DNA from: a virus
Taxonomy: Duplodnaviria > Heunggongvirae > Uroviricota > Caudoviricetes
Reading direction: 5' to 3' (one strand)
Virus record (IMG/VR): IMGVR_UViG_2671180366_000014
DNA: 19,464 nucleotides
Part shown: in pieces, positions 2,136 to 18,199 of the stretch
Numbering within the stretch: position 1 is the stretch's first letter
How the letters are laid out: each line of letters starts with the position of its first letter
Notes under the pieces: generated by a model
What the model was told of the DNA's origin: nothing
Databases searched by the model: none
What the model saw: only the letters and a program-made list of their open reading frames with translations
Translations under genes and position numbers: made by a program

Positions 2136-2304
2136 TATAGATGCTCATAAACCATTAAGGTTCAAAAACTCTATAGCAAATGTTGAAAGAAGCAAATTGA
2201 TTATACTTATTAATGCGATGTTGGGTGTCTTGATCTTTTAGCTGATGCTATGCGAAAGCAACGACAGTTTTGCTTGGTCATTGTAGTAAGACACCTCCTT
2301 TGCT

Positions 2305-2592
2305 TTATCGTAGCTGGCAATCTTTATCGCGATAACGCCTGAAGTACCCTCTCGCTTCCTCATCCATACCAAGAGCCGAATGAGTCCGCTTAACTGCCTG
2401 TCTTAAATCTCCGAATCTGTCTGTAGTTGCTGGTGGGCGTGCCGCCTTACGGATACATTCAGAGCGTCTGTTTGCTGCATGTTCACGTTCTTTATCGCCA
2501 TCTGCCAGCATCATGACTTCTGCCCATCGTGCGGCAGCTCTCCGGTATAGCCCTTTTGACTCCAGCTCTTCAGCTTTCCTGTCCCTTATCAT
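2305..2592 (-). CDS. PerC-family-like small transcriptional activator, 95 aa (tentative)
   Basis: N-terminus MIRDRKAEELESKGLYRRAAARWAEVM resembles PerC/Pch-type regulators of enterobacterial islands, recalled from memory; small basic protein. Confidence 0.5.
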   Translation of the reverse strand: MIRDRKAEELESKGLYRRAAARWAEVMMLADGDKEREHAANRRSECIRKAARPPATTDRFGDLRQAVKRTHSALGMDEEARGYFRRYRDKDCQLR

Positions 2593-2621
2593 TTCTGCCT
2601 CTCAGATTATATAGATAAGCA

Positions 2622-2728
2622 AAAAGGTGTTGGTTCAGTTGGTTCAGTTGGTTCAATTTGTAAAGAGCGTTGTTTTTATTGTGTTTTTTCTAAAATATTG
2701 AACCAACATCAACTCATTTTGAACCAAC
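2622..2728. repeat. left iteron-like cluster: 3 tandem GTTGGTTCA (2629-2655) plus 2 inverted copies TGAACCAAC (2699-2707, 2720-2728)
   Basis: Read directly. 2622-2665 is the exact reverse complement of 10256-10299 (44 bp); the flanking copies mirror the right-hand cluster with indels. Confidence 0.85.
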
Positions 2729-3208
2729 AAAAAGTGTCCGTGAACTAACACTCTGTCAAATAGTCACTACATATATTAACGGTGAAGACTAAATCCGCCA
2801 GCAAATAGCTTATATAGCACCGCTTTATGCCGCAGTTATGCTGGAACAGTAATCATTTCACAGAACCGCCTAACTACTATATGGCACCTGCTAAAAAGCA
2901 CATCAGCCTAGTCAGTTGATCGGTGCATGGATATCCTAACAATTCAACTATATAACGTGATCTCCCATGTCGATCTACTGTCATGCAATGATTAACAAAC
3001 ACATAGACACATCTGCTTGGCGCATTGATTAATCACTGATCATCCATCAGGATATGCGAACCACCGTCACCAGGTTAGGATGATTCTCAAAAGCCACCTG
3101 TATTCAATGCCTTTGATGGGTTTCATCCATAGTTATTTTCTCGTGACTGACATGGAGATTTTGATTTCAAGGTGTGCAAAAACTATCGCAGAGTACAATG
3201 GAGCTCAA

Positions 3209-4165
3209 ATGACTGTGGCACCAAAAGATCAAAGTTTGAAATCTGTAAGGGTGGGCTTTTACACAAGCTCTGAGAATATTCGCACTAGTAACAAGGGGTT
3301 AACCGCAGAGGCCTTTAAAAATCTGTATGATCGGTGTTCTAAAGACTTCAAGATGACCCACTATGCAGACTTTGGTGAAAGAGAACTTAAAATTCATTTT
3401 CTAGACATCTCACCCGAGGATGGCTCCTACTTCGGATTCATGTCTCGAAGAAGAAAAAGCGCAACACTGGCATATATTACAGATAAAGAGTGGGTGGAAG
3501 AGAAAATCCCTCTAGCCGGGGCAAAGACTCTTTCAGAACGTACATACTTTATTTATTATCCTCAGACAGACATTCTAGTATTGTCTTTAAATCATTTAGG
3601 TCCACGCCATAGTGACTTAGCCTTCCTTCTTTTCAACTCCAGTGATCGCGGAGTCCCTGTTTCTTTTGAAGCCATTTGGAAAGAAGAAAGCATCAAAGAA
3701 CTACTCGAAACTGGATCCAATCTAAGAAGCTGCGAGATTTCTGTGGCCATCCCAAGAAACTTCAATGCCGCACAGTATCAACTCGATGGAATGTTCGCGA
3801 ATCAGATGATTGAGATGATCAGAGGCACCAGTTCAAGCCACCTGACTATTTCGTTACGCGGACATTCTCCATTAAAAAGAAAAGCAAAGGGATGGCTTGA
3901 GGATGACGTTAAAAAAAGCCTTAAGGAGATGCTAGAAAAGTTCCCTGGTGGTGATGGTCGTTTAACTTTTGAGAAAGCAAATGTTGTTGCTCAGGGCGAT
4001 AAAAAGAAGAAAAGTCTTGTAGACGAAGTTCTTACGGTAAAGAAGATGGTGCCTATCCAAGCAGATGGGTATCCGACCGATACTGACGTTAAAAATGCTA
4101 TGCTACAAGCAAAGAATGACAACCTTAGGTATCTAACCCAGTACTATTTGGTTAGTCAAACGTAA
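3209..4165 (+). CDS. hypothetical soluble protein, 318 aa (ORF opens at 3080)
   Basis: ATG at 3209 has GGAG 5 nt upstream; the ATG at 3080 has a poorly spaced AGG. Region looks AT-rich relative to the rest of the window. No motif recognised. Confidence 0.6.
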   Translation: MTVAPKDQSLKSVRVGFYTSSENIRTSNKGLTAEAFKNLYDRCSKDFKMTHYADFGERELKIHFLDISPEDGSYFGFMSRRRKSATLAYITDKEWVEEKIPLAGAKTLSERTYFIYYPQTDILVLSLNHLGPRHSDLAFLLFNSSDRGVPVSFEAIWKEESIKELLETGSNLRSCEISVAIPRNFNAAQYQLDGMFANQMIEMIRGTSSSHLTISLRGHSPLKRKAKGWLEDDVKKSLKEMLEKFPGGDGRLTFEKANVVAQGDKKKKSLVDEVLTVKKMVPIQADGYPTDTDVKNAMLQAKNDNLRYLTQYYLVSQT

Positions 4166-4177
4166 CAGGAATACATT

Positions 4178-4615
4178 ATGAGTTCTCGGAAATTGTTTGC
4201 TGCCAAGTCATTGTTTGCTCTAGCTATGGCTATTGCTGGTGCCCATTTTTTACACGACCTAGATCACAATGCTGTCATTTCGGCTGCTGGTGCTCTTTCA
4301 ACTATTTCTGGAGTTCTCTTTGGTTTTGTTTTGGCATCAGTCACCATGCTAAGTAGCTTTGATAGTTCAAAGGGAATTGTAGGCGCTCTAAAAAGTAACG
4401 GAGTACTAAAAGGCATTATTGAGGGGCTTTTTGATACAGGAACTACGCTGATCACAGCCTGCCTATTAGCAATGATCTCGATGTTTGCCCCTGTTGTCAG
4501 CAATCTGCCTCTGGATTATTATGCCCTGCTACTCGCAGGGGCATATTTGATTATATCAATGATAACTTTTTTCTTTAACTGGAAATCTTTATCTAAAATA
4601 ATAAGTTACATATGA
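4178..4615 (+). CDS. small integral membrane protein, 145 aa, about 4 predicted TM helices
   Basis: AGGAA 7 nt upstream of the ATG; starts 12 bp after the stop of the upstream gene; four hydrophobic stretches of ~20 aa. Confidence 0.7.
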   Translation: MSSRKLFAAKSLFALAMAIAGAHFLHDLDHNAVISAAGALSTISGVLFGFVLASVTMLSSFDSSKGIVGALKSNGVLKGIIEGLFDTGTTLITACLLAMISMFAPVVSNLPLDYYALLLAGAYLIISMITFFFNWKSLSKIISYI

Positions 4616-4952
4616 TAAATATTTCAAAATGAGTCCCCCTGCTACGGATAGTCCTTGGCTTAAAAAATACCGTCACCGCTGAATACCCACACAGTGCCCC
4701 CACCCATTTAGTTGGCATAATGTATTCAACTGATTGAGGAATGGCTCCTCTTTTACTACCAAACGGCCATCGCTGGCGCATTCATCCGCTGGTAGTGGAA
4801 CTTTTTAGCCATCAGCGCCTCCCTAAATCAGTTCCTTACATCGCTCAAATTCAACAACCATTGTTGTAATCTTGCTGCTATCAAGTAACGCCTTTGTATT
4901 ACGCCGACTTTATCTTGCCAGCAACATACGCCATCCGATAATTTCGATGTTA

Positions 4953-4968
4953 CGCGCGCGTACTTGTC
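4953..4968. repeat. 16-bp direct repeat CGCGCGCGTACTTGTC, copy 1
   Basis: Exact match to 5239-5254; a partial third copy GCGCGTACT lies at 5331-5339. Sits in a non-coding gap. Confidence 0.7.
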
Positions 4969-5238
4969 GCAAAATATCAGACAAAAGCCAGATTCAGAAC
5001 GTCGTGATAACCACCAGCACAACATGAGAGGTCATGTAACGCGATTTATCACACCAGATACATGTGATTGGTGTACCCGCATAAAACATTGTCATAGCGC
5101 GTCCTGTGCGCATATACGCCGATAATCAACACATCACCACCACTCTGTCTCGTGTAGAGAACAGTTTCATGGTACTCCCCTCCATTGTGTGCGTACTGGT
5201 CGGACGCAGTTGCAAAACTTTTTGCAACTGATACCCCT

Positions 5239-5254
5239 CGCGCGCGTACTTGTC
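5239..5254. repeat. 16-bp direct repeat CGCGCGCGTACTTGTC, copy 2
   Basis: Exact match to 4953-4968. Confidence 0.7.
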
Positions 5255-5446
5255 TCGAAATTGGTGTTTTGCTGTGGCAGTGATATCAGAAAAATCTTCC
5301 TGTTTCACATAAAGCGGATATGCGCGTACTGTAACGACCCCATCAACGGGATCGGATTTGAAATCCTGACCCAAGCTATGTACCAAATGCCATGTCTTGG
5401 ATATATGATGATTGCCATTCTAAACAAAGCTAAAGGGAGGGTTGGT

Positions 5447-5803
5447 GTGAGGGGGCAGGCAGTTATAATTATTTTGTTGGGTTTAATTGTCGCAAAGTTA
5501 TACCCGACTTTATCGATGGTGTTTTTTGCCATTATTGGCGCAGCCATCTTTACTTATATCATTAAACATACCGCCTTGTGGTTCTATAAAATTGATATAG
5601 TTCAGAAGTTTGTACGTCCTGTGTCGATGTTATTACTAGCATTAATACCAATTGGTGTTGCTTATGTAATTGATGTTTTTTACCCTTCGGACACTGAAAG
5701 GTGGTTGATAGTTTTGTATTGTTATATTGGTGTAGCTCTCTTTTGTGGATTTCATTGGTGTTTCGAAAAGATCAATGACTCTATTTCAAAGAATAAAGAT
5801 TGA
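5447..5803 (+). CDS. small integral membrane protein, ~119 aa, about 4 TM helices (start uncertain)
   Basis: GTG at 5447 preceded by GGGAGG with 6-nt spacing; alternative ATGs at 5405/5408 lack an RBS. The upstream part of ORF 5189..5803 is not protein-like. Confidence 0.45.
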   Translation: MRGQAVIIILLGLIVAKLYPTLSMVFFAIIGAAIFTYIIKHTALWFYKIDIVQKFVRPVSMLLLALIPIGVAYVIDVFYPSDTERWLIVLYCYIGVALFCGFHWCFEKINDSISKNKD

Positions 5804-5822
5804 GGCCATCCGTGGCCATTCA

Positions 5823-7940
5823 CTAGTCATTATCTGGATCATTAGATAGCCAAGTAATGATGCCCAGTCTGGCGATGGTCCGTTTTTCCTGTTCAGGAAG
5901 AGAGTTAAAAAAACTCTTCCATTGAGGGGAGCGCCTGATACGTGAATCAACAATGTGCCCAGGCGCTTTTCCGTGTAGATTTTTTACTGCGCTCTGGAAG
6001 GCTGGCGAGGCAATTAATTTATCCGCAGCATCAGCCGCCCCTGCTCCACCAGCTAATCGAGCTTTACTCGCCAATCTTGCTCCAATATCAGCCCCAGCAA
6101 TGGCTCCAAGCGATCCAAAATGAGCGCCTACCATCGTGCCTATTTTTTGAATGTGTTTTGCTGCTAGTTCGTATGGAGCTGTTACCCGATTAAATCTGTT
6201 TACAAACTCATTCAGCTTACCAGTAGATATTTCATGCGCTTTAGCATTTTTTATTGCTCTGGCAACTTTGTATACATCATATAGTCCGCTCATTGTTTCT
6301 TTTGGCAAATGTTCAGCCAAAGTCTTTAGCTGTCCACTGTGTTGCAAGTTTTGCCACCAATCTGCAAAGCCAGATGGATTAAAGTCGGCCCCACGCTTCC
6401 CAGAGGAAAGCATATCTCTTAATGCTGTTCCTACTAGCTCCCTTCGCAATGTTCTTGATGGAGTATTTTGCATAATCTCACGAAACCCTCTCGCATCACC
6501 TTTTGCCATAGATTGAAGAGAATTCGTTACTTTATACGCTATATCCCCATTAAGTGTTTTCCCGCGAAGATTTACCATTTGCCTTTCTAAGTTTTTTCTC
6601 ATAGCTACAAGGCGTTGTGCGACTTCGAAATCTCGCAAGTATCCAGTATTGGATAAGACAGATTTTTGGTCTTCAGCTAAAGCTCCATATAGTCTTGATA
6701 GCGCTTCTTTATCAGCATCTTTGTATGGCCCCTGCTTTTTATTTAGGGCATCACCAACTAAACGCCTTTGCCTGTTTAAATTTGCATACGTTAGGATGCT
6801 ATCTGGGCCGGGGTTTATTGCTGTAAAAACTCGCTTTTCTATTGGGTCAAGATTATCCCACCCTCCTAAATCATCAGCGATTTTTTCCAGCATAGTGCTT
6901 GTGTTATTTGCTTCGACTTTTGTTCTTGGTGATAGAGCGGAATCAACACGTTTATATAACTGATCACTACGGTTTTTTAGTGCTTCCATTCTACTATTTA
7001 TCTGATAAATATATTTTTCGCTCATAGCTAACGCATCTGGCGCACCAGCAACATCATCGATTATCTTGCCAGCACTAGAGGCTAATTCGCTTATTGCTTT
7101 ATCTTCTTGAGCTTTTAACGCTGATCCTGTCCGTGACTTTAGGGCTTGCTCTACAGCTTGGTATTGCTCATTTCCTGATAAATGAGAAGGAAGAACTGAA
7201 TCAACATGAAGCCTATTTGCAGCCTCAACAATTTCTTTCTGAGGTTTTAGATCTAGCCCTTCAAGCGAAGAGGCAAGATTTGGGTTGCCTTGTGCAGATA
7301 ACTTACGAATTTTCTCTTCGGCAGGAGTAATCCCCTCAATATCTGGAATCGAAGAAACATTCTTCTTGGTTAATTTCCCAGCTATTTTATTAATTGCAGG
7401 GCCAGCAAGTTCGGCTACAGGGCCAGCCACAGCGCCAATAGCAGCGCCGGAAGCAACATCGCTATTTGTTCCATTGGCTACAATAGCCCCTTCTCCAGCA
7501 CCAAGCCCTGCGGCGGCAGCCAGTCTTGCCGCCCCTTTGGGAACCTGAGAAATAATCCCACCACCACTAACAAATGGCGCTGCTTGTCCAACGAACTCAC
7601 CAACATCTTGTGCGGTTGATGGTTTTGCCGCTAACTTCTGCTGTAGAGACTGAATTGCGGCTTGCTCTTCTGGTGTCATATCCTGAAACAGGCCAACACC
7701 TTTACCAACATCCATCAATCCACTGAGAACGCCATACATAAAACGGTCGAAACCGTTAGCATTATTAACAACATTTTCCTGTCTGGAATTTTCCTCTGGT
7801 GAAACCAAAGGTGATTGCTGCTGTTCTGGTTGGGCATCAAGCACAAAACCATCAGGAAGCTGTGAACTATCAGGAAACTGTGAGTTATCAGGTTGTTCAT
7901 CGAGCACAAAACCTTCCGGTAAGATTACATTTGCTGCCAT
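5823..7940 (-). CDS. hypothetical large protein, 705 aa, Ala/Gly-rich with glycine-zipper-like segments
   Basis: AGGAA 6 nt upstream of the ATG; start overlaps the end of the upstream gene by 16 bp. N-terminal tandem repeat LPEGFVLDEQP / LPDGFVLDAQP. Confidence 0.8.
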   Translation of the reverse strand: MAANVILPEGFVLDEQPDNSQFPDSSQLPDGFVLDAQPEQQQSPLVSPEENSRQENVVNNANGFDRFMYGVLSGLMDVGKGVGLFQDMTPEEQAAIQSLQQKLAAKPSTAQDVGEFVGQAAPFVSGGGIISQVPKGAARLAAAAGLGAGEGAIVANGTNSDVASGAAIGAVAGPVAELAGPAINKIAGKLTKKNVSSIPDIEGITPAEEKIRKLSAQGNPNLASSLEGLDLKPQKEIVEAANRLHVDSVLPSHLSGNEQYQAVEQALKSRTGSALKAQEDKAISELASSAGKIIDDVAGAPDALAMSEKYIYQINSRMEALKNRSDQLYKRVDSALSPRTKVEANNTSTMLEKIADDLGGWDNLDPIEKRVFTAINPGPDSILTYANLNRQRRLVGDALNKKQGPYKDADKEALSRLYGALAEDQKSVLSNTGYLRDFEVAQRLVAMRKNLERQMVNLRGKTLNGDIAYKVTNSLQSMAKGDARGFREIMQNTPSRTLRRELVGTALRDMLSSGKRGADFNPSGFADWWQNLQHSGQLKTLAEHLPKETMSGLYDVYKVARAIKNAKAHEISTGKLNEFVNRFNRVTAPYELAAKHIQKIGTMVGAHFGSLGAIAGADIGARLASKARLAGGAGAADAADKLIASPAFQSAVKNLHGKAPGHIVDSRIRRSPQWKSFFNSLPEQEKRTIARLGIITWLSNDPDND

Positions 7941-9268
7941 TTTCCGTTCCTGTAAATGATTTTCTGACCAGTTTTAGGGTTGGTTGCCGTTGCGCCTTCT
8001 GATATTCCTCCGGTTGCCGCTTTTGCCTGTCCAGTGCCAGCCTGTGATGTAGGCTGCCCGGAAACATCGTCAAATAGCTTCGCTTTCCTTCTTTCAAGGC
8101 TTTTTCTTAGCCCCTGAGGAATAGTTTCTCCATATGTATCGAGATACTCGTCAACCTGCTGGTTAAACTGCTGCCCCATAGCATTGGCGTTGATTTTTGC
8201 GGCGTTAACAATGTTATCCTTTGCCTCCTGCGACAGGCCGTTTCCAGCATTAAGCTGGTCTATGTATCCTTTGATTTGTCCCCATATGCCATCAGACCGC
8301 ATTACCTGAACCTGTTCGCCTTCACGAACGACTGACTGCGGGTCAAGAGATTTCATGTAGTTGAAGATAATCCCAAGTTGGGCAGCGCCAGTATTTACCT
8401 TGCTAAGGGCTTGCAGAGAGTTTGCCGCCGCTCTGACAGAGTTATAATTTTTGCCAAAATTGGTAATGTCAGAATTTAATCCCTTAATTAAGTCTGCTGA
8501 CGGCTTACCTTTTTGCCCCAGCTCCATTAGCTTCAATCCCATCTCATCTGAGTGAATTTGTGCTCGCTGAGCCCTGTCTAGTTGAGCGTTCTGGATATTT
8601 GCCCATCCTCTCGCGTTCTCCATGTCAGCCTGACGCATACTTTCATCCAGTCGCCCTTGCTCAAGTCGACGACCTTCCATTTGATCTTTGATATCGAAAT
8701 ACTTCTCATGACCGAGAGAAAACAGCGCCAGATTACCTGCGAAATGCTGGAAGCCCTGCGGGTCATTAACCTGCATTTCAGCAATAGTTTCTGGAGGGAT
8801 ACCTAAACGACGCATCTCCTGCTCATTATCTATCATGAACCTGCCAAATGCGCCCGGACCAAGCGATGAGGCTACCTGTGCTTTGAGCGCCAGATTGCCA
8901 TAATCATCCCTTTGAGCATCATCGACATAACTCATCCCTTTACGGACTTCCTCAAACTCTTCTGGGAATGCTGTAATAAGATTACGCATCTGCTCCCTGT
9001 CACCGGACGCATAAGCATCTGCATAACCTTTCTGGAATGCCGCTTTACGCTCCTGCTGTTGCTGCTGCTTATAAATATCAGCAACTCCAGCCAGACCACG
9101 AAGACCTGTCAGAGCAACGTTATTTGCACCTGAGCGAGCCAGTTCATTGTTTTCGCGGATCAGACCAAGCGTTGCGTTAATGTCGCTTGCCTTTGGCGCA
9201 TTCTCATTTTGCGTACCGATGCCAGCCAGAAAACCACCAGAATTAATACCCTGTTGCCACGTAGCCAT
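7925..9268 (-). CDS. hypothetical protein, 447 aa, Gln/Ala-rich, probably coiled-coil
   Basis: ORF 7925..9280 opens on GTG; first ATG at 9268 (MATWQQ...) lies 4 nt after the stop of the 57-aa ORF. Contains a QQQQQ tract. Confidence 0.8.
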   Translation of the reverse strand: MATWQQGINSGGFLAGIGTQNENAPKASDINATLGLIRENNELARSGANNVALTGLRGLAGVADIYKQQQQQERKAAFQKGYADAYASGDREQMRNLITAFPEEFEEVRKGMSYVDDAQRDDYGNLALKAQVASSLGPGAFGRFMIDNEQEMRRLGIPPETIAEMQVNDPQGFQHFAGNLALFSLGHEKYFDIKDQMEGRRLEQGRLDESMRQADMENARGWANIQNAQLDRAQRAQIHSDEMGLKLMELGQKGKPSADLIKGLNSDITNFGKNYNSVRAAANSLQALSKVNTGAAQLGIIFNYMKSLDPQSVVREGEQVQVMRSDGIWGQIKGYIDQLNAGNGLSQEAKDNIVNAAKINANAMGQQFNQQVDEYLDTYGETIPQGLRKSLERRKAKLFDDVSGQPTSQAGTGQAKAATGGISEGATATNPKTGQKIIYRNGKWQQM

Positions 9269-9272
9269 AAAT

Positions 9273-9446
9273 TTACCCACGTCCAGTTAAAGTGTAAGCC
9301 AGCGCCTTATCCATTAATCCCCGAGCAATTTCGTGGATCGTTGGCGCAACTCCTACCTCTGATTTTTTACGCTGCTCCTCCTGAATTTTCTTTATCGCTT
9401 CCATTTGCTTCTCACTTATCAATACTGGCTTTACTGAAATAGCCAT
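9273..9446 (-). CDS. small protein, 57 aa (MAISVKPVLISEKQMEAIKK...), not in the supplied ORF track
   Basis: Translated by hand on the minus strand: ATG at 9446 with GGGGG 4 nt upstream, stop TAA at 9273-9275 followed by ATTT-ATG of the 447-aa gene. Confidence 0.5.
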   Translation of the reverse strand: MAISVKPVLISEKQMEAIKKIQEEQRKKSEVGVAPTIHEIARGLMDKALAYTLTGRG

Positions 9447-9540
9447 AACGCCCCCTTAGAACTGTATAAAACAACAGTCATTATAGTTTCATAAAACGCA
9501 ACATTCATCATTGTGATTGCAAAATATGAAACAAACAGCA

Positions 9541-9574
9541 CAAAAAAATGCCACCGTTCAGTAGCTGGTGGCAT
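9541..9574 (-). terminator. rho-independent terminator (minus strand)
   Basis: Stem ATGCCACC / GGTGGCAT with an 11-nt loop; on the minus strand it is followed by a run of 7 T. Lies between the 152-aa gene and the 57-aa gene. Confidence 0.55.
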
Positions 9575-9600
9575 CGTTCTGTATGTCAGGTTTTGACAGT

Positions 9601-9622
9601 TTTTTTATGGACTCTAAAAACT
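9601..9622. repeat. 22-bp motif TTTTTTATGGACTCTAAAAACT (copy A)
   Basis: 20 of 22 positions identical to 15075-15096; core TTTTATGGACT also at about 16155-16165; a near copy TTTATGGAGTC at 9627-9637. Confidence 0.7.
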
Positions 9623-9626
9623 ATAT

Positions 9627-10085
9627 TTATGGAGTCGCATTACTCTTCATGGCGTGAGCTTTCCTGTTCTCTCTTTGTTCCTGGTTCCATGGATAAGTGT
9701 AATTGCCACCAGCAAAGACCATATTGATTTTGTGAGGAACCATTAAAGCGATATCAGCACTCATGTCACTGAATGAAACACAGTGCAGGCGTTCAAGCCA
9801 TTTGTATGCTGCTGCCGCTTCTCCCCACAAATTAATCCCTGCAAGTTCAACAATATCTCTGATGGAGCAGATATCAACCATCCCGTTAACGCCTGTAAAA
9901 CGGCGTTTAAAGTCGCCAAGATACTTTCTGAAAAGAGTTGCTTTCATTGGTTCAGAAAGGTCTATGTATGGGAACACAACCACATCAAGCAGCATCTCCC
10001 TTCTGTTGTTCATCGGTATTACAGATGGCAAATCGGATACTTTGCCAAATACATGATGAAAAGCCTTTGCGATTATCTTCATCAT
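9627..10085 (-). CDS. hypothetical protein, 152 aa
   Basis: ORF 9627..10088 opens on TTG; ATG at 10085 has GGGAG 4-5 nt upstream; followed by a terminator. Confidence 0.6.
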   Translation of the reverse strand: MMKIIAKAFHHVFGKVSDLPSVIPMNNRREMLLDVVVFPYIDLSEPMKATLFRKYLGDFKRRFTGVNGMVDICSIRDIVELAGINLWGEAAAAYKWLERLHCVSFSDMSADIALMVPHKINMVFAGGNYTYPWNQEQRENRKAHAMKSNATP

Positions 10086-10181
10086 CAATCTCCCACTGAA
10101 ACCAGTGATGTGGTGTTCAGATTTCGTAAAACACTCTCTAATGCCAGCCAGATGTTGTGCTCATCAATTCAGTCACATTGT

Positions 10182-10299
10182 GTTGGTTCAAAATACCGTG
10201 TTGTTGGTTCAGTGTTGGTTCAATAAAAAGAATAAAATCCTTATAAAACAATACACTTTACAAATTGAACCAACTGAACCAACTGAACCAACACCTTTT
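10182..10299. repeat. right iteron-like cluster: GTTGGTTCA at 10182, 10203, 10214 plus 3 tandem TGAACCAAC (10266-10292)
   Basis: Read directly; mirror image of the left cluster. Sits between the primase stop (10318) and the 152-aa gene start. Confidence 0.85.
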
Positions 10300-10317: not shown

Positions 10318-13074
10318 TCATTCTTCAGATGAGTTATAATCTCCTGGCTGGTAATTGAGTACATAAACGTTTATTTGTCGTCCCTGAATACGTGGTGATT
10401 TTCTTTGGTATCCACGACCGCTGTTTGGTGGGGTTAGCATCCCGGCTTTTTTCAACACTTCAGCAAACTGTTTTGCGTTGAAACCACATGCGATCTCCTT
10501 TTCAAATGTGGCCGGGAATGTGTAGAAAATCATTGGGCTTTCGTCATGTTCTCCACGCTGACGGTATCCGGCTAAATCTTTGATGGGCAAATCTGCCGGG
10601 CTGTATGGAAATGGTGCAAAACGGCTAAGCCCATAGGCATTAAGAAATGCCTCCGTTTGTTCAATAATCTGCTGATGTTCTTTGTTACCTGTGCCGAACT
10701 CGCGCAACCATGCGTTATAGCTGTGCTGTATCGCATCACGGCATGTCTGAGCATCCCAGCCTGTTACAACTTCGCCTAACAGCAATGCTGCCTCCAGAAT
10801 GGCAAATCGCGCGGCTACACGGTGAACCTGCTCACCATAATCGGATGGGATCAGGCTTCTCCATCTGCTTTCGCAATCACGAACAGTTTTAATAGCCTGT
10901 TGCTGGTGGTCTGCCAGCCATTTAATCCACTCACGCCCGGCTGCGCCGTGGTGATGCTGGTAAGCGTCTTTCAGTGCGTCTGCGTGCTGTTTTCCGTTCT
11001 GGTAATCGTGAAAGCGTACTGCTTTACTCAACGGAATATTCAGCAGTCGCACCAGTTGCCCGGCTTTGGTTTTTCGCCCGGAAGTAGCGATAAATGTTTC
11101 TAAATCCATTTCTCCGGTGCTGATTGCCACTGTACGCCAGCGTTTTAGATCCCGGTTTCCACCATCTTTAGCGCCTTGCAGTTTCCCTACACCGTTAAAT
11201 AACGCATAGGCAGACTGTGAAACGCTGACAGGATCAGCGCCCTGACCAACTTCATCAAGCGGCATTAATCCGTCATTGTGGGCGGCGGCCTCATTTGCCA
11301 GCCCCAGCGCGGTTCCGTACCACGTCAGCCGCAGTAAATCAGGGTTGCCGTATAAGCTGCTCGCCACGTTTGCCGTGGTGGTCTTACCCGCGCTCGACTG
11401 CTCATAGAAATGAATGCCGAACCCGTCAGCGCCCACCAGCCCAATCAATGGCGCTGCCAGTGCTGCGCCGATCCCGGTCATCATTGAATAGTTACCAAAG
11501 GCCAGACGCGCCACGTTATCACGCCAGCTTTTCGCGCTCCCTGAGACGGTATATCCGGCTGCGGCTGAGCTTCTCCCGCTGAACAGCACAGGATTTTCAG
11601 GTGTTCCGATGATTTCCCCATCAGGCATGATGTACGCTCCGCATTGCCAGCCAGTGGCATGAGCAACACGCCACAATTCACGAGAGCCACTGCGTTGTAG
11701 CCAGTCTGCCAGTATTGCTCTGAGGCTGCTTTTGGTCGTGACATTTACCCCACCAGCTTTAAGTGTGCGCCATCCTTCACGTTCACCAATATCAGCCAGT
11801 GGAATGGCAGCGGTTGTCGGCGTTTCAGAACCAAACGACAGCCAGCGAAGAATGAGATACTGGTCTTTATCGTCTCTGCCAGTACCGATAACGCTTAACG
11901 GAGAACATAACCAGCTTTCGTTATTGATGATTTCTCCACTCTGGCTGTCAGCTCTCGGAGATACCCAATAAATACCATCCTCGCGGCTTTCTATTCTTGG
12001 TTTCAGTGGGTCGGTATCCATAACCTTAAAATCGCTTCCCTCAATGGTCTGTGGCTGCTGTTTCACGCCATTACCCTGTGGTTGGTACATTGACTTATTG
12101 AACGCTTCTGTGGCGCATTTAATGCCGTGTTTTTGGTGGTAATCATTCCAGTCTGCTTTGTGATCTGTCGGGGGTAATGCCACCCATCCAGAAACAGATA
12201 AAGCTGCTTTTTCTGCTGCTATTCTCCCCGTGTTTTGTCTTCCTTCGCTGTGGTCGTTATCCGCAGCAATGATGATTTGTGCTGAAGGAAATTTATCCCG
12301 CAGTACCTGGGCGACATATAACAGGTTCCCGGCATCAATCGCCGCCACTGTCAGCGCCTCTGGACGAATTAAATGGGCAGATAATGCCGTTGCCAGCCCT
12401 TCTGCGATTAAGATGCTCTGTGTTGTTTCTGGTGCGTTTATGGCGTGATATGCCCCTCGCTTTGCTGAACCTGTCAGGAGTCTTTTTTCACCATGTGAGG
12501 TAATAGTCTGTGCTGCTGTGACTGCGCCGGATTTATCCACCAGCGCCAGCAACAGAGATCCATCGGGCAACACGGGGAATGTAAAATCACCTACCCCTTT
12601 CGCAACCAGATAATCAGATTTGCCGTTTACAGCCTTTCTGCGCATGTCATCAAACTGACGGGAAAACGTATCCCGTCTTTGTTGTTCGTCCTTCTCTGCC
12701 CTTTTCAGGCGCTCCTGTTCGCGTCGCTGGCGCTCGGTTTCCAGTTGTTCCCGTTTCTGGCTGGTGGCTTCTGGTGTTTCCGTTGTCCGGTAATCAATAC
12801 CCAGAACATCAGCGGCAAGAAGCGCCGCCTCTGTTGTGTCGCAGTTATTTACGCGTTTAATTAAATCCAGCCCATCACCAGCGCCGCACTGATTACAGAT
12901 GAAGCTACCGCGCCCGTTGTCATCGAACCGGAATCGATCTTTGCCCCCACATGCAGGGCAGGGAGCATGACGGCGCGGAGAGTCAGGGACATTTATGTTC
13001 AGGCAGCCCAGCACATGAGGCCAGTTGTTTTCAGACGCACTGATAACCTGACGGATAAGATCAATGTTTCGCAT
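10318..13074 (-). CDS. DNA primase-helicase, 918 aa (N-terminal zinc ribbon, Toprim-like primase, C-terminal P-loop NTPase; P4 alpha-like)
   Basis: CPACGG...CNQCG zinc-ribbon motif, acidic IIIAADND Toprim-like stretch, Walker A SSAGKTT, Walker-B-like LMPLDEV; GGGGG RBS 6 nt upstream of the ATG. Confidence 0.9.
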   Translation of the reverse strand: MRNIDLIRQVISASENNWPHVLGCLNINVPDSPRRHAPCPACGGKDRFRFDDNGRGSFICNQCGAGDGLDLIKRVNNCDTTEAALLAADVLGIDYRTTETPEATSQKREQLETERQRREQERLKRAEKDEQQRRDTFSRQFDDMRRKAVNGKSDYLVAKGVGDFTFPVLPDGSLLLALVDKSGAVTAAQTITSHGEKRLLTGSAKRGAYHAINAPETTQSILIAEGLATALSAHLIRPEALTVAAIDAGNLLYVAQVLRDKFPSAQIIIAADNDHSEGRQNTGRIAAEKAALSVSGWVALPPTDHKADWNDYHQKHGIKCATEAFNKSMYQPQGNGVKQQPQTIEGSDFKVMDTDPLKPRIESREDGIYWVSPRADSQSGEIINNESWLCSPLSVIGTGRDDKDQYLILRWLSFGSETPTTAAIPLADIGEREGWRTLKAGGVNVTTKSSLRAILADWLQRSGSRELWRVAHATGWQCGAYIMPDGEIIGTPENPVLFSGRSSAAAGYTVSGSAKSWRDNVARLAFGNYSMMTGIGAALAAPLIGLVGADGFGIHFYEQSSAGKTTTANVASSLYGNPDLLRLTWYGTALGLANEAAAHNDGLMPLDEVGQGADPVSVSQSAYALFNGVGKLQGAKDGGNRDLKRWRTVAISTGEMDLETFIATSGRKTKAGQLVRLLNIPLSKAVRFHDYQNGKQHADALKDAYQHHHGAAGREWIKWLADHQQQAIKTVRDCESRWRSLIPSDYGEQVHRVAARFAILEAALLLGEVVTGWDAQTCRDAIQHSYNAWLREFGTGNKEHQQIIEQTEAFLNAYGLSRFAPFPYSPADLPIKDLAGYRQRGEHDESPMIFYTFPATFEKEIACGFNAKQFAEVLKKAGMLTPPNSGRGYQRKSPRIQGRQINVYVLNYQPGDYNSSEE

Positions 13075-13086
13075 TCTGGCCCCCGT

Positions 13087-13689
13087 TTAGTGCGTCACTG
13101 GTGCTTCTGGGATGCCGTTTTCGTTTAGTTCGGCAATAAAGCTGTTGTGAAGATCGGCAAGCACTTCTCGCCCAAACGAAGTGAGTGTTCCCTGTTCGAC
13201 ATCGAACATGTTGCTGTAAAAAATGATGGCATTCTTTGTTCCGACATCAACACCATATTTCTCGATCATTGCGCCCTCAATGTTGTTTGCCATAGCGAGG
13301 CGCTCTGCTACTGGATACAGCGGCATGGCGACGATGCCATTGGAATAAACAGAAACCACGGAATGATTGCCACTGTCATCAATAATGCTGACGGTGCCGT
13401 TTTCCTTTCTCATTTCATTGATGAATGCTGTTGCTATCAGCCAGCGCCACATAATCACGTGATGCTGTGATGTGTAATCGAAATATCCCTGGTTGCCGCC
13501 ACTGGCAATAGCGAGATGTATAAACATGCCTTCATCTGGTTTATCGTCATAATCCCCGGCATCCAGACGATTTACGGCATCAATATATGAGACGGTCTCA
13601 ACGCGTTCTGTCATGCCATCGTTGCTGCGGTACATGATGTTTACGCCGTCAGGCGTTGCTTCTGCATGGAAAGTTAAGAAATTATTCAT
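13087..13689 (-). CDS. hypothetical protein, 201 aa
   Basis: ORF 13087..13794; chosen start MNNFLTF at 13689, which overlaps the upstream stop by 8 bp; stop is 12 nt before the primase start. Confidence 0.55.
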   Translation of the reverse strand: MNNFLTFHAEATPDGVNIMYRSNDGMTERVETVSYIDAVNRLDAGDYDDKPDEGMFIHLAIASGGNQGYFDYTSQHHVIMWRWLIATAFINEMRKENGTVSIIDDSGNHSVVSVYSNGIVAMPLYPVAERLAMANNIEGAMIEKYGVDVGTKNAIIFYSNMFDVEQGTLTSFGREVLADLHNSFIAELNENGIPEAPVTH

Positions 13690-13903
13690 GTTTCGCCTCG
13701 CCTGAATGATTCTGTAACTCATATTTGCCCAACAATTCGTCTGCTTCCTGAATAGCTTCTGGTACGCCATTGAGCAGTGACATAACCGCGCCAATCATTA
13801 ACTTGTCTCTGTTGCTGGGGCTGGCCCCTTCAAGCCAGAACCCTAAAACAGTCTGAACCTGTTCGATGCGACATTGCGCTTCAATGAGCTGGATGTTGGT
13901 CAT
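13682..13903 (-). CDS. small hypothetical protein, 73 aa
   Basis: ATGA start/stop overlap with the upstream ORF (translational coupling). Confidence 0.5.
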   Translation of the reverse strand: MTNIQLIEAQCRIEQVQTVLGFWLEGASPSNRDKLMIGAVMSLLNGVPEAIQEADELLGKYELQNHSGEAKHE

Positions 13904-14163
13904 TTCGCACTCTCCACATCGATTAAACTGATATCTATCAGGGAGGTAACTTTTTGTAGCCAGCTATTGATTACTGTCGCCTGTTCCCCTCCCACCGAGG
14001 GAACAATCTCATTCATCACATGAACCAGACCTGTGCGTGCTCTGGTAAGCCGTTCAGTCGCGCAATCTGCGGGAGTGAATGTGTCTGGATATGGCTCTTC
14101 GCGCCCCAGCAATGATTCAATTTCCAGCTCACACGGATGACGATAAATTAAGTTGATATTCAT
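13900..14163 (-). CDS. small hypothetical protein, 87 aa
   Basis: ATGA start/stop overlap with the upstream ORF. Confidence 0.5.
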   Translation of the reverse strand: MNINLIYRHPCELEIESLLGREEPYPDTFTPADCATERLTRARTGLVHVMNEIVPSVGGEQATVINSWLQKVTSLIDISLIDVESAK

Positions 14164-14354: not shown

Positions 14355-15414
14355 TGGTTGCCCCCGTCTTTCCTGGCATTTCGCCACCTTCCAGCAGGAA
14401 ATGAACGTCACGAACGGCGAGATCCAATATCGCGAGCAACGCCTTCAGTTTTTCGTCTCGTGAGGGAGAGCTGCTCACCAGAATGTCATTAATCACTTCT
14501 GTCAGTGTGATGATCTGGCTTGTGCGTTCGAGGGGGTCCATATGCACATCGTAGGTTTTAATCATGTGCCACCTCCATGCGGATACGACCAACAAAAAAG
14601 CAGACGTTATCGCGCACCAGAGAACGGCGAGCATCGCGTTCAGACTCGGCAGCAATATGATGAATTTTGGCGGTAATTGTCGGGCAATCGCGGCGAACTG
14701 CGGCGATAATCCAGATAAATTGCGGTTTTTGGGTAGGGGTAGTAGCCAGCATGTGGCAGCCTCCTTCAGATAGCAGGTTACGCTACCACCGGAAACGCCA
14801 ATTTCGCTGGTGGTAGCCCAGACAGGGTTGGCGTAACCGGCTCTGAAGGATACCGGCGCTTCCGAAGAAGCCCCCGCCTGAGCCACCATTGATTGACAAA
14901 GGCGCTGGATTATACACCAACGCCCAAAAAATGGGTGAGTCAGACCTACGACATAAAAAAAGACGCTCGGCGCGTCATATGTCGCCTTCAGAATTTTCAG
15001 GACGCCAATCCCGGCACCCGTTTTATGAGGTGCCTTATAACCATAAACCGTGTTGCCGCATAACGGCAAGCTCTTTTTTATGGACTCCGAAAACTCACTA
15101 TTGGAAGAACCAGAAGCACAGTACATCGCGCTCATTTCGTTAACGTCACGCGCGTGGACGAATGTTTTTGTGGAGTCACTACACGAGCAGAACAGGTGAT
15201 CTACGACCAGAAATTCTCTGGCGCAGCCGCTGACCTTCTCAACGCTAACACCATCGACCGTAATTTCTGACATAGTTAAGGCATCCGCTCCTACCACCAG
15301 AAAATGATAAACTTTGCTTGTATCTGCTGTATTAATGCCAGACTTTGCTGTCATATTGCCGGATTTTGGCGACATACCAGCCAGTGAAAATATCTTCTTC
15401 TGGGCGGTTAGCAT
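14347..15414 (-). CDS. hypothetical protein, 355-aa open frame; gene structure ambiguous
   Basis: ATG at 15414 has GGAGG 6 nt upstream. The frame then stays open to 14347, but contains a second strongly RBS-preceded in-frame ATG at 14565 and overlaps an alternative-frame 64-aa ORF (14558..14752) that has its own GGAGG. See findings. Confidence 0.4.
15075..15096. repeat. 22-bp motif TTTTTTATGGACTCCGAAAACT (copy B)
   Basis: 20 of 22 positions identical to 9601-9622; lies inside the 355-aa open frame. Confidence 0.7.
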
Positions 15415-15590
15415 TTGTTAACCTCCACGAACTCCTTCATGAAACGTGCCAGCGGTTGCACGCATGGCGATTGATACCCGTCGCGATAAAACGTCACTCG
15501 GTTGTGAGACACGCTTTCGACAGTAACGAGTGCTCCGTGGGCATCTTTGTAGCGTTTTTGAGGTTGTGGTGTTCCTGTCGGCTTAAACAT
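15408..15590 (-). CDS. small hypothetical protein, 60 aa
   Basis: ORF 15408..15677; the ATG at 15590 (MFKPTG) lies 2 nt after the stop of the Rha-like gene; its own stop overlaps the start of the next ORF. Confidence 0.45.
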   Translation of the reverse strand: MFKPTGTPQPQKRYKDAHGALVTVESVSHNRVTFYRDGYQSPCVQPLARFMKEFVEVNKC

Positions 15591-16416
15591 GGACCGCCTC
15601 CAGACGCTTGGCGAGCCAGCGTTGCGACAGGCGGGTGAGTTCTCCTTTGCGCTGCTCATATTCCATGCCCATATCAATTAACGTGATATTGGTGCTTTCG
15701 AGATATGAGAGGTGTTCAAGCTGTTCTGCGTTCATATGGTCGCGAGGTTCGCCAGAATAGCCATTTATCCGCGCCCACTGCTTGGCAGTTAGCCCACCAA
15801 GAACGATACGAGAAATCATATTGCTCTCGTTTGTGTAGTGGTGTTGCTGCGTCGTTTTACCCATCTCGGCACGGGCCATATTCAGCGCATCGCACATTGG
15901 CTTAAAGTTGTTTGCGGCACTGATACGGGCTTTTAGCTGGCGACGATAGCGGGCGGCGATTTCAGGCACGCTACGCTGTAATTCTTCCTCGCACTGGATG
16001 AAATAACGGCGGATAGCGCGCCCCTGATCATTGCGTTCGATCATTGCCAGTTCTTTCGCCATTCCGACACTTAACAGATAGTCTTTGCCGGGTCTGCCAG
16101 AGTGCTTAATCTTGCTGTAAACCGCGCCATTCGGGCTTTTCCCCAAATTTGGGGAAATTGTTTTATGGACTGAGTAATCGTGCCCAATGGTGAAGTCATA
16201 TTCAGAGATGCGATCAGTGATCCATGTAGAGAAGTCTTTTCCCACGCCCAACGCTTTGTGTAACGCTTTTGCGCTAACAATATTGGTTTCACGCCCACCG
16301 ATATGACCAGGAATAACCGGGACAATTGCGGCAAATTCATTACCGTTAATTGTGCCCAGAGAGGCGTTCGGATGAGGGGCGGCCTCAGAAATTAATCTGC
16401 TTTTTTCGATGTTCAT
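15583..16416 (-). CDS. phage regulatory protein, Rha / antirepressor-like, 277 aa
   Basis: Segment DYLLSVGMAKELAMIERNDQGRAIRRYFIQCEEEL resembles the conserved core of Rha/Ant-type phage regulators, recalled from memory; GGAG RBS 5 nt upstream. Confidence 0.65.
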   Translation of the reverse strand: MNIEKSRLISEAAPHPNASLGTINGNEFAAIVPVIPGHIGGRETNIVSAKALHKALGVGKDFSTWITDRISEYDFTIGHDYSVHKTISPNLGKSPNGAVYSKIKHSGRPGKDYLLSVGMAKELAMIERNDQGRAIRRYFIQCEEELQRSVPEIAARYRRQLKARISAANNFKPMCDALNMARAEMGKTTQQHHYTNESNMISRIVLGGLTAKQWARINGYSGEPRDHMNAEQLEHLSYLESTNITLIDMGMEYEQRKGELTRLSQRWLAKRLEAVHV

Positions 16417-16428
16417 TTTCAGTCTCCG

Positions 16429-16860
16429 TTAGGCGGCGTTAAACGCGTTCGGGTAGAGTTTCAGAATGTCGGCAATTTCCTGCTGAGAAAGTCCGTTGTG
16501 ATCATTTATGTTCGCAAGATGGTTAACATGAGTGATCACTTTCAGAACATCACCACGGCAGGAGAAACGGTAGCGAAGGTGTGTTCCGATACCATCAGGA
16601 TTCTTTTCGTCGATACGCTCCAGAGTGATTCCAAGCTGGCGTTCTAACTCTGTTGCATAGTTACGACCAGAAGACAGACGGCAGTAGCGAAGAATGTCAT
16701 TTTCTGTCCATCCCTCTATACCAGTACGCAGCATATAGACTCTGGCACGATGCTTTTTCGGTGTGCGCTTTGGTGCTTGAAGGGATTTTGTCAGGGGCGT
16801 AACATCAGATACGCGAATATCTGAATTAGCCGCCTGTAATGGGCGGTTTTTCTTTTCCAT
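16429..16860 (-). CDS. hypothetical protein, 143 aa
   Basis: ATG overlaps the AlpA stop (ATGA); basic N-terminus. Confidence 0.6.
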   Translation of the reverse strand: MEKKNRPLQAANSDIRVSDVTPLTKSLQAPKRTPKKHRARVYMLRTGIEGWTENDILRYCRLSSGRNYATELERQLGITLERIDEKNPDGIGTHLRYRFSCRGDVLKVITHVNHLANINDHNGLSQQEIADILKLYPNAFNAA

Positions 16861-17078
16861 CAGGCCACCTTCCCGCGGCGTTCTGCCAGCCAGTTATTAA
16901 TTTCCACCGCATCAAACGCAGTCACGTTATCTGTTAGCTTCACTGGGCGTGGAAGAGTGCCATTTTTAACCCATCTATCAATAGTAGGCAGTGAAACACC
17001 TAGCAATTCCGGCATGCGAAAGCGACGGATGTATCCAGTTGTTGGGATAGCTGATGATGCTGGCTTGTGTGCTGTCAT
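16860..17078 (-). CDS. alpA: AlpA-family transcriptional regulator / excisionase-like, 72 aa
   Basis: Segment RMPELLGVSLPTIDRWVKNGTLPRPVKL is the typical AlpA/Vis-type HTH; located next to a P4-type integrase. Confidence 0.8.
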   Translation of the reverse strand: MTAHKPASSAIPTTGYIRRFRMPELLGVSLPTIDRWVKNGTLPRPVKLTDNVTAFDAVEINNWLAERRGKVA

Positions 17079-17548: not shown

Positions 17549-18199
17549 TTAGTCGAGATCGTGGACAGCTAATAAAGCCCGTGAGATTTTTTCTAGGAAT
17601 GTGGCTTTTGCTATTCCTTTATGGGATATCCCTTCATCCTTGATTAAGGTTTCTATGTCACGGTATATAGCTGTGCGATTAGGTTTCCCATTTTGGATGT
17701 AGGAAGATGAGCCTGATTTTTTTATCAGCAGATGTACTATCAACCCCATCATTTTCATTGTCCCGTTTTCCTCATCCTGCTTTCTATGCTGCCCACGTCC
17801 GCTGCGGTTGGTTTCTTTGATGTAGTTTACTAACTGGAGTCCTCCAAGGTTTCGGGCTTTTTCTTCCCAGCCCTTGGTGCCACGCAAATCATCAATCGCT
17901 TCTGATATTTTCTGAACAATTATTTCTGGTGTATTTGTGTCAATAAATGGGTAAGAAGCTAAGAAAATATCAAGGGCATGGCAAGGCTCGTCTTTACTAG
18001 TTTTTTCACCTCTGTACACCTTGATAGCTCTGGCAAGATGAGTTCTGACAAAATCGACATATTCGAAATTTTCCTCAGGCACATCGCTAATGCGCATAGA
18101 TGGGTTTAGGCCAGCCAAGGCCACAGCCATTTCATGAGGGGTAATCGATACAGATGAACAAAGCCGTTCGATTGGCGATTTTCTCAAGATGTTGTTCAC
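17549..18199 (-). CDS. hypothetical protein, 216 aa
   Basis: ATG overlaps the integrase stop (ATGA), so it is co-transcribed with int; no motif recognised. Confidence 0.65.
   Translation of the reverse strand: MNNILRKSPIERLCSSVSITPHEMAVALAGLNPSMRISDVPEENFEYVDFVRTHLARAIKVYRGEKTSKDEPCHALDIFLASYPFIDTNTPEIIVQKISEAIDDLRGTKGWEEKARNLGGLQLVNYIKETNRSGRGQHRKQDEENGTMKMMGLIVHLLIKKSGSSSYIQNGKPNRTAIYRDIETLIKDEGISHKGIAKATFLEKISRALLAVHDLD

Follow-up and report, generated by a model that had tools for sequence, protein, structure and literature searches.

Phage-inducible chromosomal islands, or PICIs, are currently described and annotated with a replication origin that is one short locus after the pri-rep gene. 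In the related SaPI islands the Rep proteins are self-loading; the iterons recognised by their C-terminal winged helix follow rep directly and flank an AT-rich centre. Satellite P4 is built differently: both ori and crr are needed in cis. The GenBank annotation of P4 places crr (4291-4590) directly 3' of the alpha gene (4636-6969) and ori (9086-9809) between diverging genes, 4.7 kb off. P4 crr is a pair of 120-bp repeats packed with type 1 iterons, and the same iterons recur in ori. Long-distance assembly at ori and crr has been shown since the 1980s; to our knowledge, the reason for this design has never been explained. EcCIMP1 is a PICI located at tRNA-Thr that excises, circularises and is transferred by the P22-like phage Kapi1. 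The DNA analysed here, a stretch of 19,464 nucleotides (IMG/VR virus record IMGVR_UViG_2671180366_000014; referred to as the window, at its full length), is an EcCIMP1-like PICI. Two inverted repeats in the window bracket accessory genes, and they are probably the two halves of a composite PICI replication origin that is split by cargo.

Structure of the two putative origin halves

Positions 2622-2665 match the reverse complement of 10256-10299 exactly. This perfect core of 44 nt had been noted in the original prediction, and the exact match indeed stops there in both directions. A repeat finder returned arms of 55 nt with 95% identity (2622-2676 / 10245-10299) and a second, looser inner arm pair (2694-2736 / 10174-10216, 79%). 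The repeats are built from the 9-bp iteron GTTGGTTCA, of which the window contains 11 exact copies, every one inside the two modules. When one mismatch was allowed, 18 matches were found while 5.05 were expected, and 18 was reached in 0 of 200 shuffles. From outside to inside, each module consists of AAAAGGT, three tandem copies of GTTGGTTCA, a 43-bp AT-rich spacer and three spaced inverted copies. Both spacers have an A+T content of 79-84%. Origins of the PICI/SaPI type have at least two opposed iterons on each side of an AT-rich region; both modules have three.

The proximal half (R; 10182-10299, minus strand) starts 19 bp past the primase stop codon. Read in the direction of the primase gene, AAAAGGT is followed by the tandem GTTGGTTCA copies (10292-10266), the spacer (10265-10223) and three spaced copies of TGAACCAAC (10222-10182); the spacer is the fourth least stable 43-bp stretch of the window. 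Iterons of this module start at 10182, 10203 and 10214 on the plus strand and at 10266, 10275 and 10284 on the minus strand. The distal half (L; 2622-2749, plus strand) has its tandem copies behind AAAAGGT at 2629-2655 (starts at 2629, 2638 and 2647, plus strand), its spacer at 2656-2698 and its spaced TGAACCAAC copies at 2699, 2720 and 2741 (minus strand), the last of which is degenerate. Intervals between the spaced copies differ, 21/21 on the left and 11/21 on the right, and this difference accounts for the indels that had been predicted between additional, mirrored copies of the 9-mer. Further inward from the proximal half lies a linker motif, CTGGCTGGCA (10142-10151, minus strand). On its outer side the distal half has a conserved flank (2596-2621; minus-strand sequence acctttttgcttatcTATATAATc), which may be a -10 element or a part of the origin.

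It had also been proposed that a perfect core inside diverged repeats implies functional constraint or gene conversion, and this is supported. The 44-bp core is made up of three consensus iterons and the flanks AAAAGGT and ATTTGTAAAG, which are near-invariant in E. coli modules and less so across genera. Purifying selection alone therefore accounts for the perfect match. A recent duplication or gene conversion as source of the core was considered and rejected, since R resembles R and L resembles L when islands are compared and selection is enough to explain it.

Comparison with P4, PICI/SaPI origins and EcCIMP1

The closest analogue of this arrangement is P4 ori/crr. Both are small integrative satellites with two clusters of the same iteron kilobases apart, one directly 3' of the primase-helicase gene and the other between diverging genes, so that, going by position, crr has its counterpart in the proximal half of the window and ori in the distal half. 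The primase domains are homologous as well: the N-terminal 360 amino acids of the window's primase, Pri-Rep, share 33% identity with the P4 alpha primase domain (E=2e-41). Homology to alpha does not extend over the whole length, however, as the helicase and origin-binding part of Pri-Rep is DUF927/SaPI-Rep-like whereas that of alpha is of the D5_N/DUF5906/Pox_D5 type. The iteron of the window has 9 bp (GTTGGTTCA) and the type 1 iteron of P4 has 8 bp; crr consists of direct repeats, whereas the sites in the window are mirror-image halves, and close relatives of the window, unlike P4, show an alternative, contiguous state. With a shared primase domain and an unrelated helicase and DNA-binding part, the island is P4-like in layout and not a member of the P4 ori/crr family. 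The earlier suggestion of paired iteron arrays bound by the element's own replication protein, as in P4 ori and crr, is the one that found support, refined in that the two arrays appear to be halves of one origin which are contiguous in relatives.

In position, opposed iterons and AT-rich centre the proximal half fits the PICI/SaPI origin, and Pri-Rep is homologous to SaPI Rep; judged by these sequence features, the right module is a canonical PICI origin. What differs is that the described origins are single loci beside rep, while in this family the origin is a double palindromic unit, with the second half 7.4 kb off in the window. No mention of a split origin was found in the PICI literature examined. 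EcCIMP1, with a primase that is 99.6% identical to that of the window, has the same order of AlpA, antirepressor, Ash/Icd, Pri-Rep, ejection-protein genes and PerC, and its origin halves are also split, lying 8.4 kb apart with a perfect core of 48 bp. It differs from the window in its integrase and integration site (tRNA-Thr between proA and yagU, instead of dinD/yicC), in additional cargo (DUF2824, a 678-bp open reading frame (ORF) and a larger transfer protein of the lytic-transglycosylase type) and in the genes occupying a variable slot.

Contiguous origins in related islands

Relatives of the primase from other species were collected at 77 loci, with 10 kb per locus. In nearly all of these loci iteron arrays, belonging to several sequence classes, are found directly past the primase stop. 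The array at many loci is about 260-300 bp long and is composed of a module of the right type, a linker of ~50 bp and a second module. This second module closes with another tandem array of three iterons, in the opposite orientation to the first array, and a 'cttttgcttatatata' tail; its tandem array and tail equal the left module of the window read from outside. The 10 relatives that were printed have both halves side by side in ~300 bp past the primase, and their outer tandem arrays show the same inverted arrangement as those of the window. Seven iteron classes show the contiguous layout: TGAACCAAC, GAGACAACA, TGAACCGAC, GTCGGGTA, ACGGGTTA, GTGGGTTA and TGGGATAAG. The linker mostly carries CTGGCTGGCAG or a close variant, and in most of the printed classes CTGGCTGGCA, or a variant differing in one or two bases, follows the proximal half. 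The occurrence of both modules together in relatives, in the same mutual orientation, argues that the repeats of the window are split halves of one origin.

Contiguous origins also occur in E. coli itself, in 39 complete genomes, two of which were examined. Both have the island at the same dinD/yicC site as the window; strain ET479 (locus L085) shares the window's iteron class, and strain STN0717-20 (L084) has GAGACAACA iterons. R of the window aligns to the ET479 origin up to CTGGCTGGCA (10151-10142), which is the last position collinear with contiguous origins, and the alignment of L starts at the distal tandem array and continues from there. What separates the two, 7.4 kb of DNA, is thus cargo inside a composite origin. 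L is homologous to the second half of the contiguous origins and to distal halves in other genera. Because the contiguous form is present in all iteron classes, it is presumably the older state. The gene for the PerC-family regulator, perC, is situated directly after the composite origin or within about 0.5 kb in islands of this form. In several of them the two outer arrays mirror each other exactly, odd repeat units included, which suggests that gene conversion may act while the halves adjoin.

Some further observations were made on these loci. The motif at the linker past the proximal half in L038, L041 and L064, and on both sides of the cargo in L058, is CTGGCTGGTGG. It includes GCTGGTGG, the Chi sequence of E. 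coli, whereas the CTGGCTGGCA of the window is no Chi site. The cargo boundary might be a recombination hotspot in these islands. Yersinia pekkanenii (L037) carries three copies of the composite origin in its long form, at -5712, -1130 and +51 relative to the primase end, and short C-terminal primase fragments stand beside two of the three, suggesting tandem or partly duplicated islands. In the window a degenerate two-unit iteron-like stretch, GTTGCTTTCATTGGTTCAG (9931-9955), is present within a 153-aa ORF and resembles the tandem array with 76% similarity. Its distance from the primase stop is ~360 bp, slightly more than that of the distal array in contiguous origins (about +260 to +320), and it could be a chance similarity or a decayed remnant.

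Pri-Rep and its match to the iterons

Pri-Rep is a protein of 918 aa (10318-13074, minus strand) with a Zn-ribbon, a Toprim primase domain, a DUF927 helicase domain and a C-terminal tail containing YQRKSPRI. Its Pfam matches are Zn_Ribbon_Prim, Toprim_3 and DUF927, and its helicase part (residues 401-813) has matches to two solved SaPI Rep helicases, 8TCH (E=1e-11) and 5DGK. A phmmer search of the tail against the PDB returned only noise. Comparison of the relatives showed that a short C-terminal motif tracks the iteron class, irrespective of how similar the bodies of the primases are. All proteins of the GAACCAAC class have (Y/F)QRKSPR(I/V), with bodies that are 62-100% identical to Pri-Rep of the window; the AGACAACA class, with bodies of 74-82% identity, has YQGRVRE(D/G). 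K(R/K)KALK(R/K) goes with the ACGGGTTA class and VTRK(T/S)LRI with the GAACCGAC class. The tail of the protein therefore varies jointly with the proximal as well as the distal iterons. Of the computational results, this joint change argues most strongly for a reading of both halves by Pri-Rep, which would bind them through recognition of the iterons by its C-terminal domain.

Split origins and their conservation

Split halves were found in Lonsdalea, Chimaeribacter, Rosenbergiella, Pantoea, Serratia, Leclercia, Cedecea and E. coli, with gaps of 0.16, 0.9, 2.1, 4.6, 5.8, 6.1, 6.7, 7.1, 7.4, 8.3, 8.6 and 8.8 kb. The layout and the inverted orientation of the distal half are kept in at least 13 split islands from these eight genera. 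Linker motif CTGGCTGGCA or a variant is retained by the proximal half in 7 of 14 split islands and is missing there in the others, and the position of perC relative to the halves varies between lineages. Together, these two observations suggest, without proof, that more than one split event may have occurred. A second cluster near the first is also present in L045 (AACCGACC-type, 0.4 kb) and L074 (CAGGGGCA, 1.1 kb), which may be splits as well.

When distal halves of seven lineages, covering further islands of E. coli as well as other genera, were compared, the iteron columns were 93% identical, the sequence between iterons 63% and the flanks about 40%, as expected from selection on binding sites. 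Of 5,426 complete E. coli genomes, 536 contain the module sequence, and the median number of places in a genome is two.

Several individual islands deserve mention. E. coli PA45B (L002) has, at the same site, a P4-alpha-like primase (11593-13944; Zn-ribbon, Toprim, DUF5906) with iterons of its own, GGTACAGG/CTGTACCAC. These form two mutually inverted arrays (10340-10460 and 11460-11570) that lie 1.1 kb apart and bracket two small genes, which means that a split origin exists in a second initiator family too. The GTTGGTTCA distal half beside perC survives in this island as an orphan. The perC-side module of E. coli SFE8 (H101; NZ_CP051219.1, 67627-68044) matches a chimeric probe until 77 nt into its R-type spacer, at 95%. 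Its distal half thus carries an AT-rich spacer of the proximal type, possibly obtained by exchange between the halves. Two direct copies of GTAAGAC(A/G) (e.g. CCGTAAGACAGTGTAAGACAG) precede the distal half, about 10-45 bp to its inner side, in L016, L022, L024, L029 and L063; before these copies, L022, L029 and L063 have the conserved beginning of a gene that points inward (…GGGATTTGCTCAT). The E. coli islands lack this motif, which may serve as an operator for a different regulator.

Proposed mechanism and alternative explanations

In most related islands a palindromic origin of ~300 bp stands directly after pri-rep, its halves about 50 bp apart. In the window and in EcCIMP1 the halves are separated by accessory DNA that includes P22-type ejection genes and a variable slot and starts past CTGGCTGGCA. 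Once a helper phage has induced excision, both arrays would be bound by Pri-Rep, and the AT-rich stretch of each half could melt. The halves may be brought together by protein-mediated looping, as is the case for P4 alpha with ori and crr; alternatively, each half may act as an origin. A more tentative and rather doubtful extension is that the interior of the origin is a privileged cargo slot, in which looping or dual firing ties dosage or expression of the ejection and variable genes to induction. Pri-Rep on both halves might then loop out the enclosed genes, or both halves might fire, in which case replication of the cargo would come first and run in the same direction as its converging transcription units.

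A number of points limit the case for a composite origin. In the 10 kb fetched per locus, about ten loci of the same iteron class show a proximal half and no distal one; there the distal half may be dispensable or farther off. All clearly split forms belong to one iteron class, and covariation from class to class is thus not directly seen for a half that lies kilobases away. A clone of pri-rep with the adjacent ori of EcCICFT073 replicated by itself, indicating that one locus can suffice in that PICI. The AlphaFold single-sequence model of the C-terminal domain of Pri-Rep reached a predicted local distance difference test score (pLDDT) of 39.5 and was not used. In PA45B-type islands, finally, the distal half is nearly intact though the primase has been exchanged for the P4-alpha-like one with other iterons, which means that a distal half can persist without its cognate initiator.

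This last case would fit a distal half that serves mainly in transcriptional control, as a divergent promoter/operator for perC and the variable cargo under Pri-Rep, with the proximal half alone as origin. Plasmid Rep proteins offer an analogy, as they repress at iteron-like repeats; moreover, the distal half always lies between diverging genes, and a TATATA-type ('cttttgcttatatata'-type) motif follows its tandem array in 6 of 7 iteron classes (the print-out of the seventh, L060, ends just before this position). A scan for consensus sigma-70 promoters, however, found none in 2200-3200 and nothing at either half, and the TATAAT that is present is just 13 nt from the perC ATG. The distal half also retains the full layout of an origin, with an AT-rich centre and opposed iterons, and in contiguous islands it and the proximal half make up a single palindromic unit. 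A mainly regulatory function is therefore considered unlikely, even though operator and origin roles of the distal half are compatible and not mutually exclusive. The orphan in PA45B-type hybrids could also be taken as a sign that the distal half has no function and was merely left behind, not yet decayed, when related islands rearranged or recombined. The loci lacking a distal half within 10 kb would agree with this, and the varying position of perC indicates that rearrangements did occur. A decaying relic is nevertheless improbable in view of the conservation of the distal iterons across genera compared to the sequence around them, the maintenance of layout and orientation in so many split islands and the presence of the split form in EcCIMP1, a mobile PICI.

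Two further explanations concern the repeats as recombination sites. A near-perfect inverted repeat of 44-55 bp suffices for occasional RecA-dependent inversion, and the repeats might hence serve as sites for reversible inversion of the 7.4-kb segment as a switch. Orientation, however, is identical in every genus examined, no invertase gene was found in the window, and a synthetic inversion-junction probe matched 550 of the 5,426 complete E. coli genomes, none of them with a place covering at least 80% of it; a switch is thus very improbable. Hardly any credence is given to the idea, part of the original prediction, that the repeats are terminal inverted repeats of an unrecognised cargo-bearing transposable unit. 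Inverted repeats that bracket accessory genes do resemble such a unit, but domain searches found no transposase or recombinase between them and the outer flanks (…gataagc / ctacgca…) form no direct target-site duplication. In relatives the supposed ends are about 50 bp apart and vary in sequence jointly with the primase. A composite origin split by cargo remains the preferred explanation of the repeats.

Cargo between the putative origin halves

The cargo between the halves (2750-10141, 7.4 kb) starts just past the linker motif. It comprises ORFs at 3080-4165, 4178-4615 and 5189-5803 on the plus strand and at 5823-7940, 7925-9280, 9273-9446 and 9627-10088 on the minus strand. The 451-aa product of 7925-9280 matches Pfam Inj_translocase and the 705-aa product of 5823-7940 is a PHROG 'DNA transfer protein'; by their sequences, the genes in 5823-9280 encode homologues of P22 gp20- and gp16-type ejection proteins. 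Contrary to the original prediction, not all genes of unknown function lie between the repeats: a 254-aa ORF (1371-2135) and several ORFs of the core module are outside. Ejection-protein homologues are also found in L004 (20347-25005) and L086 (5481-10649), and they raise the idea of a satellite that supplies its own ejection proteins to the capsid of a podovirus helper.

The two sides of the cargo behave differently. Adjoining the proximal half are a 153-aa ORF, a 57-aa ORF and the ejection-protein homologues, which are conserved among E. coli islands. Adjoining the distal half is a variable slot, filled by 361-aa and 145-aa ORFs in the window and by other genes in B2.3, PA45B, AR_452 and MP1; the gene set differs in L002, L003, L004 and L086. 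The far boundary of this slot is a conserved gene of ~400 bp (5405-5803), not the other repeat. It had been proposed that the repeats are footprints of cargo exchange by recombination between conserved flanks, and that related islands would show conserved repeats with varying cargo. The repeats are conserved and the cargo does vary, but only beside the distal half, and the position of the boundary does not point to recombination between the two repeats.

Genes diverge from the distal half in every annotated E. coli case, and raw ORF maps of other genera suggest the same. PADLOC gave zero defence-system matches in the cargo of the window. A chloramphenicol acetyltransferase gene is located just outside the distal half in Leclercia adecarboxylata (L058, 21771-22448), showing that the slot beside the distal half can carry antibiotic resistance.

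The island and its ends

The window represents an island between dinD (1-837) and yicC of E. coli and is near-identical to that of strain W46. The dinD-yicC interval of ~18.5 kb is within the size of about 10-20 kb that is usual for PICIs. Among the genes of the window no phage capsid, tail or lysis genes were found, the two ejection-protein homologues being the sole virion-related ones. As in other PICIs, an integrase gene (18196-19464, minus strand) is at one end of the island, an AlpA-family regulator gene (16860-17078, minus strand) is near it, and the island has its own pri-rep module followed by an origin (the 918-aa Toprim/DUF927 protein and the iterons past its stop). All core genes are on the minus strand, in the order integrase, 216-aa ORF, AlpA, antirepressor, Ash/Icd with C4/isrK RNAs, small ORFs and the 918-aa protein, which is the layout of a Gram-negative PICI. 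The first gene outside the distal half is that of the PerC-family regulator (2305-2592, minus strand; Pfam PerC, E=2.6e-33).

Two RNAs inside the Ash/Icd region score above the Rfam gathering score: C4 antisense RNA (14806-14893, minus strand, 79.9 bits) and isrK (14956-15033, minus strand, 67.8 bits). C4/isrK is the RNA-based immunity module of P1, P7 and P4. A search for an att core at the island ends gave only 10-bp repeats of the TATGTACAC type. (T)ATGTACA(C) motifs are repeated at both island ends (1138-1148 in the window; 31490-31550 in L001, just past the integrase) and look like integrase arm-type sites. In E. coli STN0717-20 (L084) the island with the contiguous origin is followed by two tandem dinD genes (14741-15565 and 15907-16731), one of which is apparently island-borne; this hints at integration at or within the end of dinD.

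Implications

The EcCIMP1-like family would show that a PICI origin can be a double, mirror-symmetric one that tolerates kilobases of genes between its halves, in an island that is known to be mobile. The two iteron arrays mark the place where cargo is inserted, including candidate anti-phage or virulence genes. The link between C-terminal motif and iteron may provide a readable specificity code, by which cross-replicating satellites could be predicted. If both halves are needed, self-loading helicases of the Rep type would be able to assemble over long distances, and the natural series of gaps of 0.05, 0.16, 0.9, 2.1, 4.6 and up to 8.8 kb is well suited for testing the dependence on distance. 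Should the interior of the origin indeed be a privileged cargo slot, the series from contiguous to 9 kb would show the evolution of a P4-type ori/crr arrangement from a single origin.

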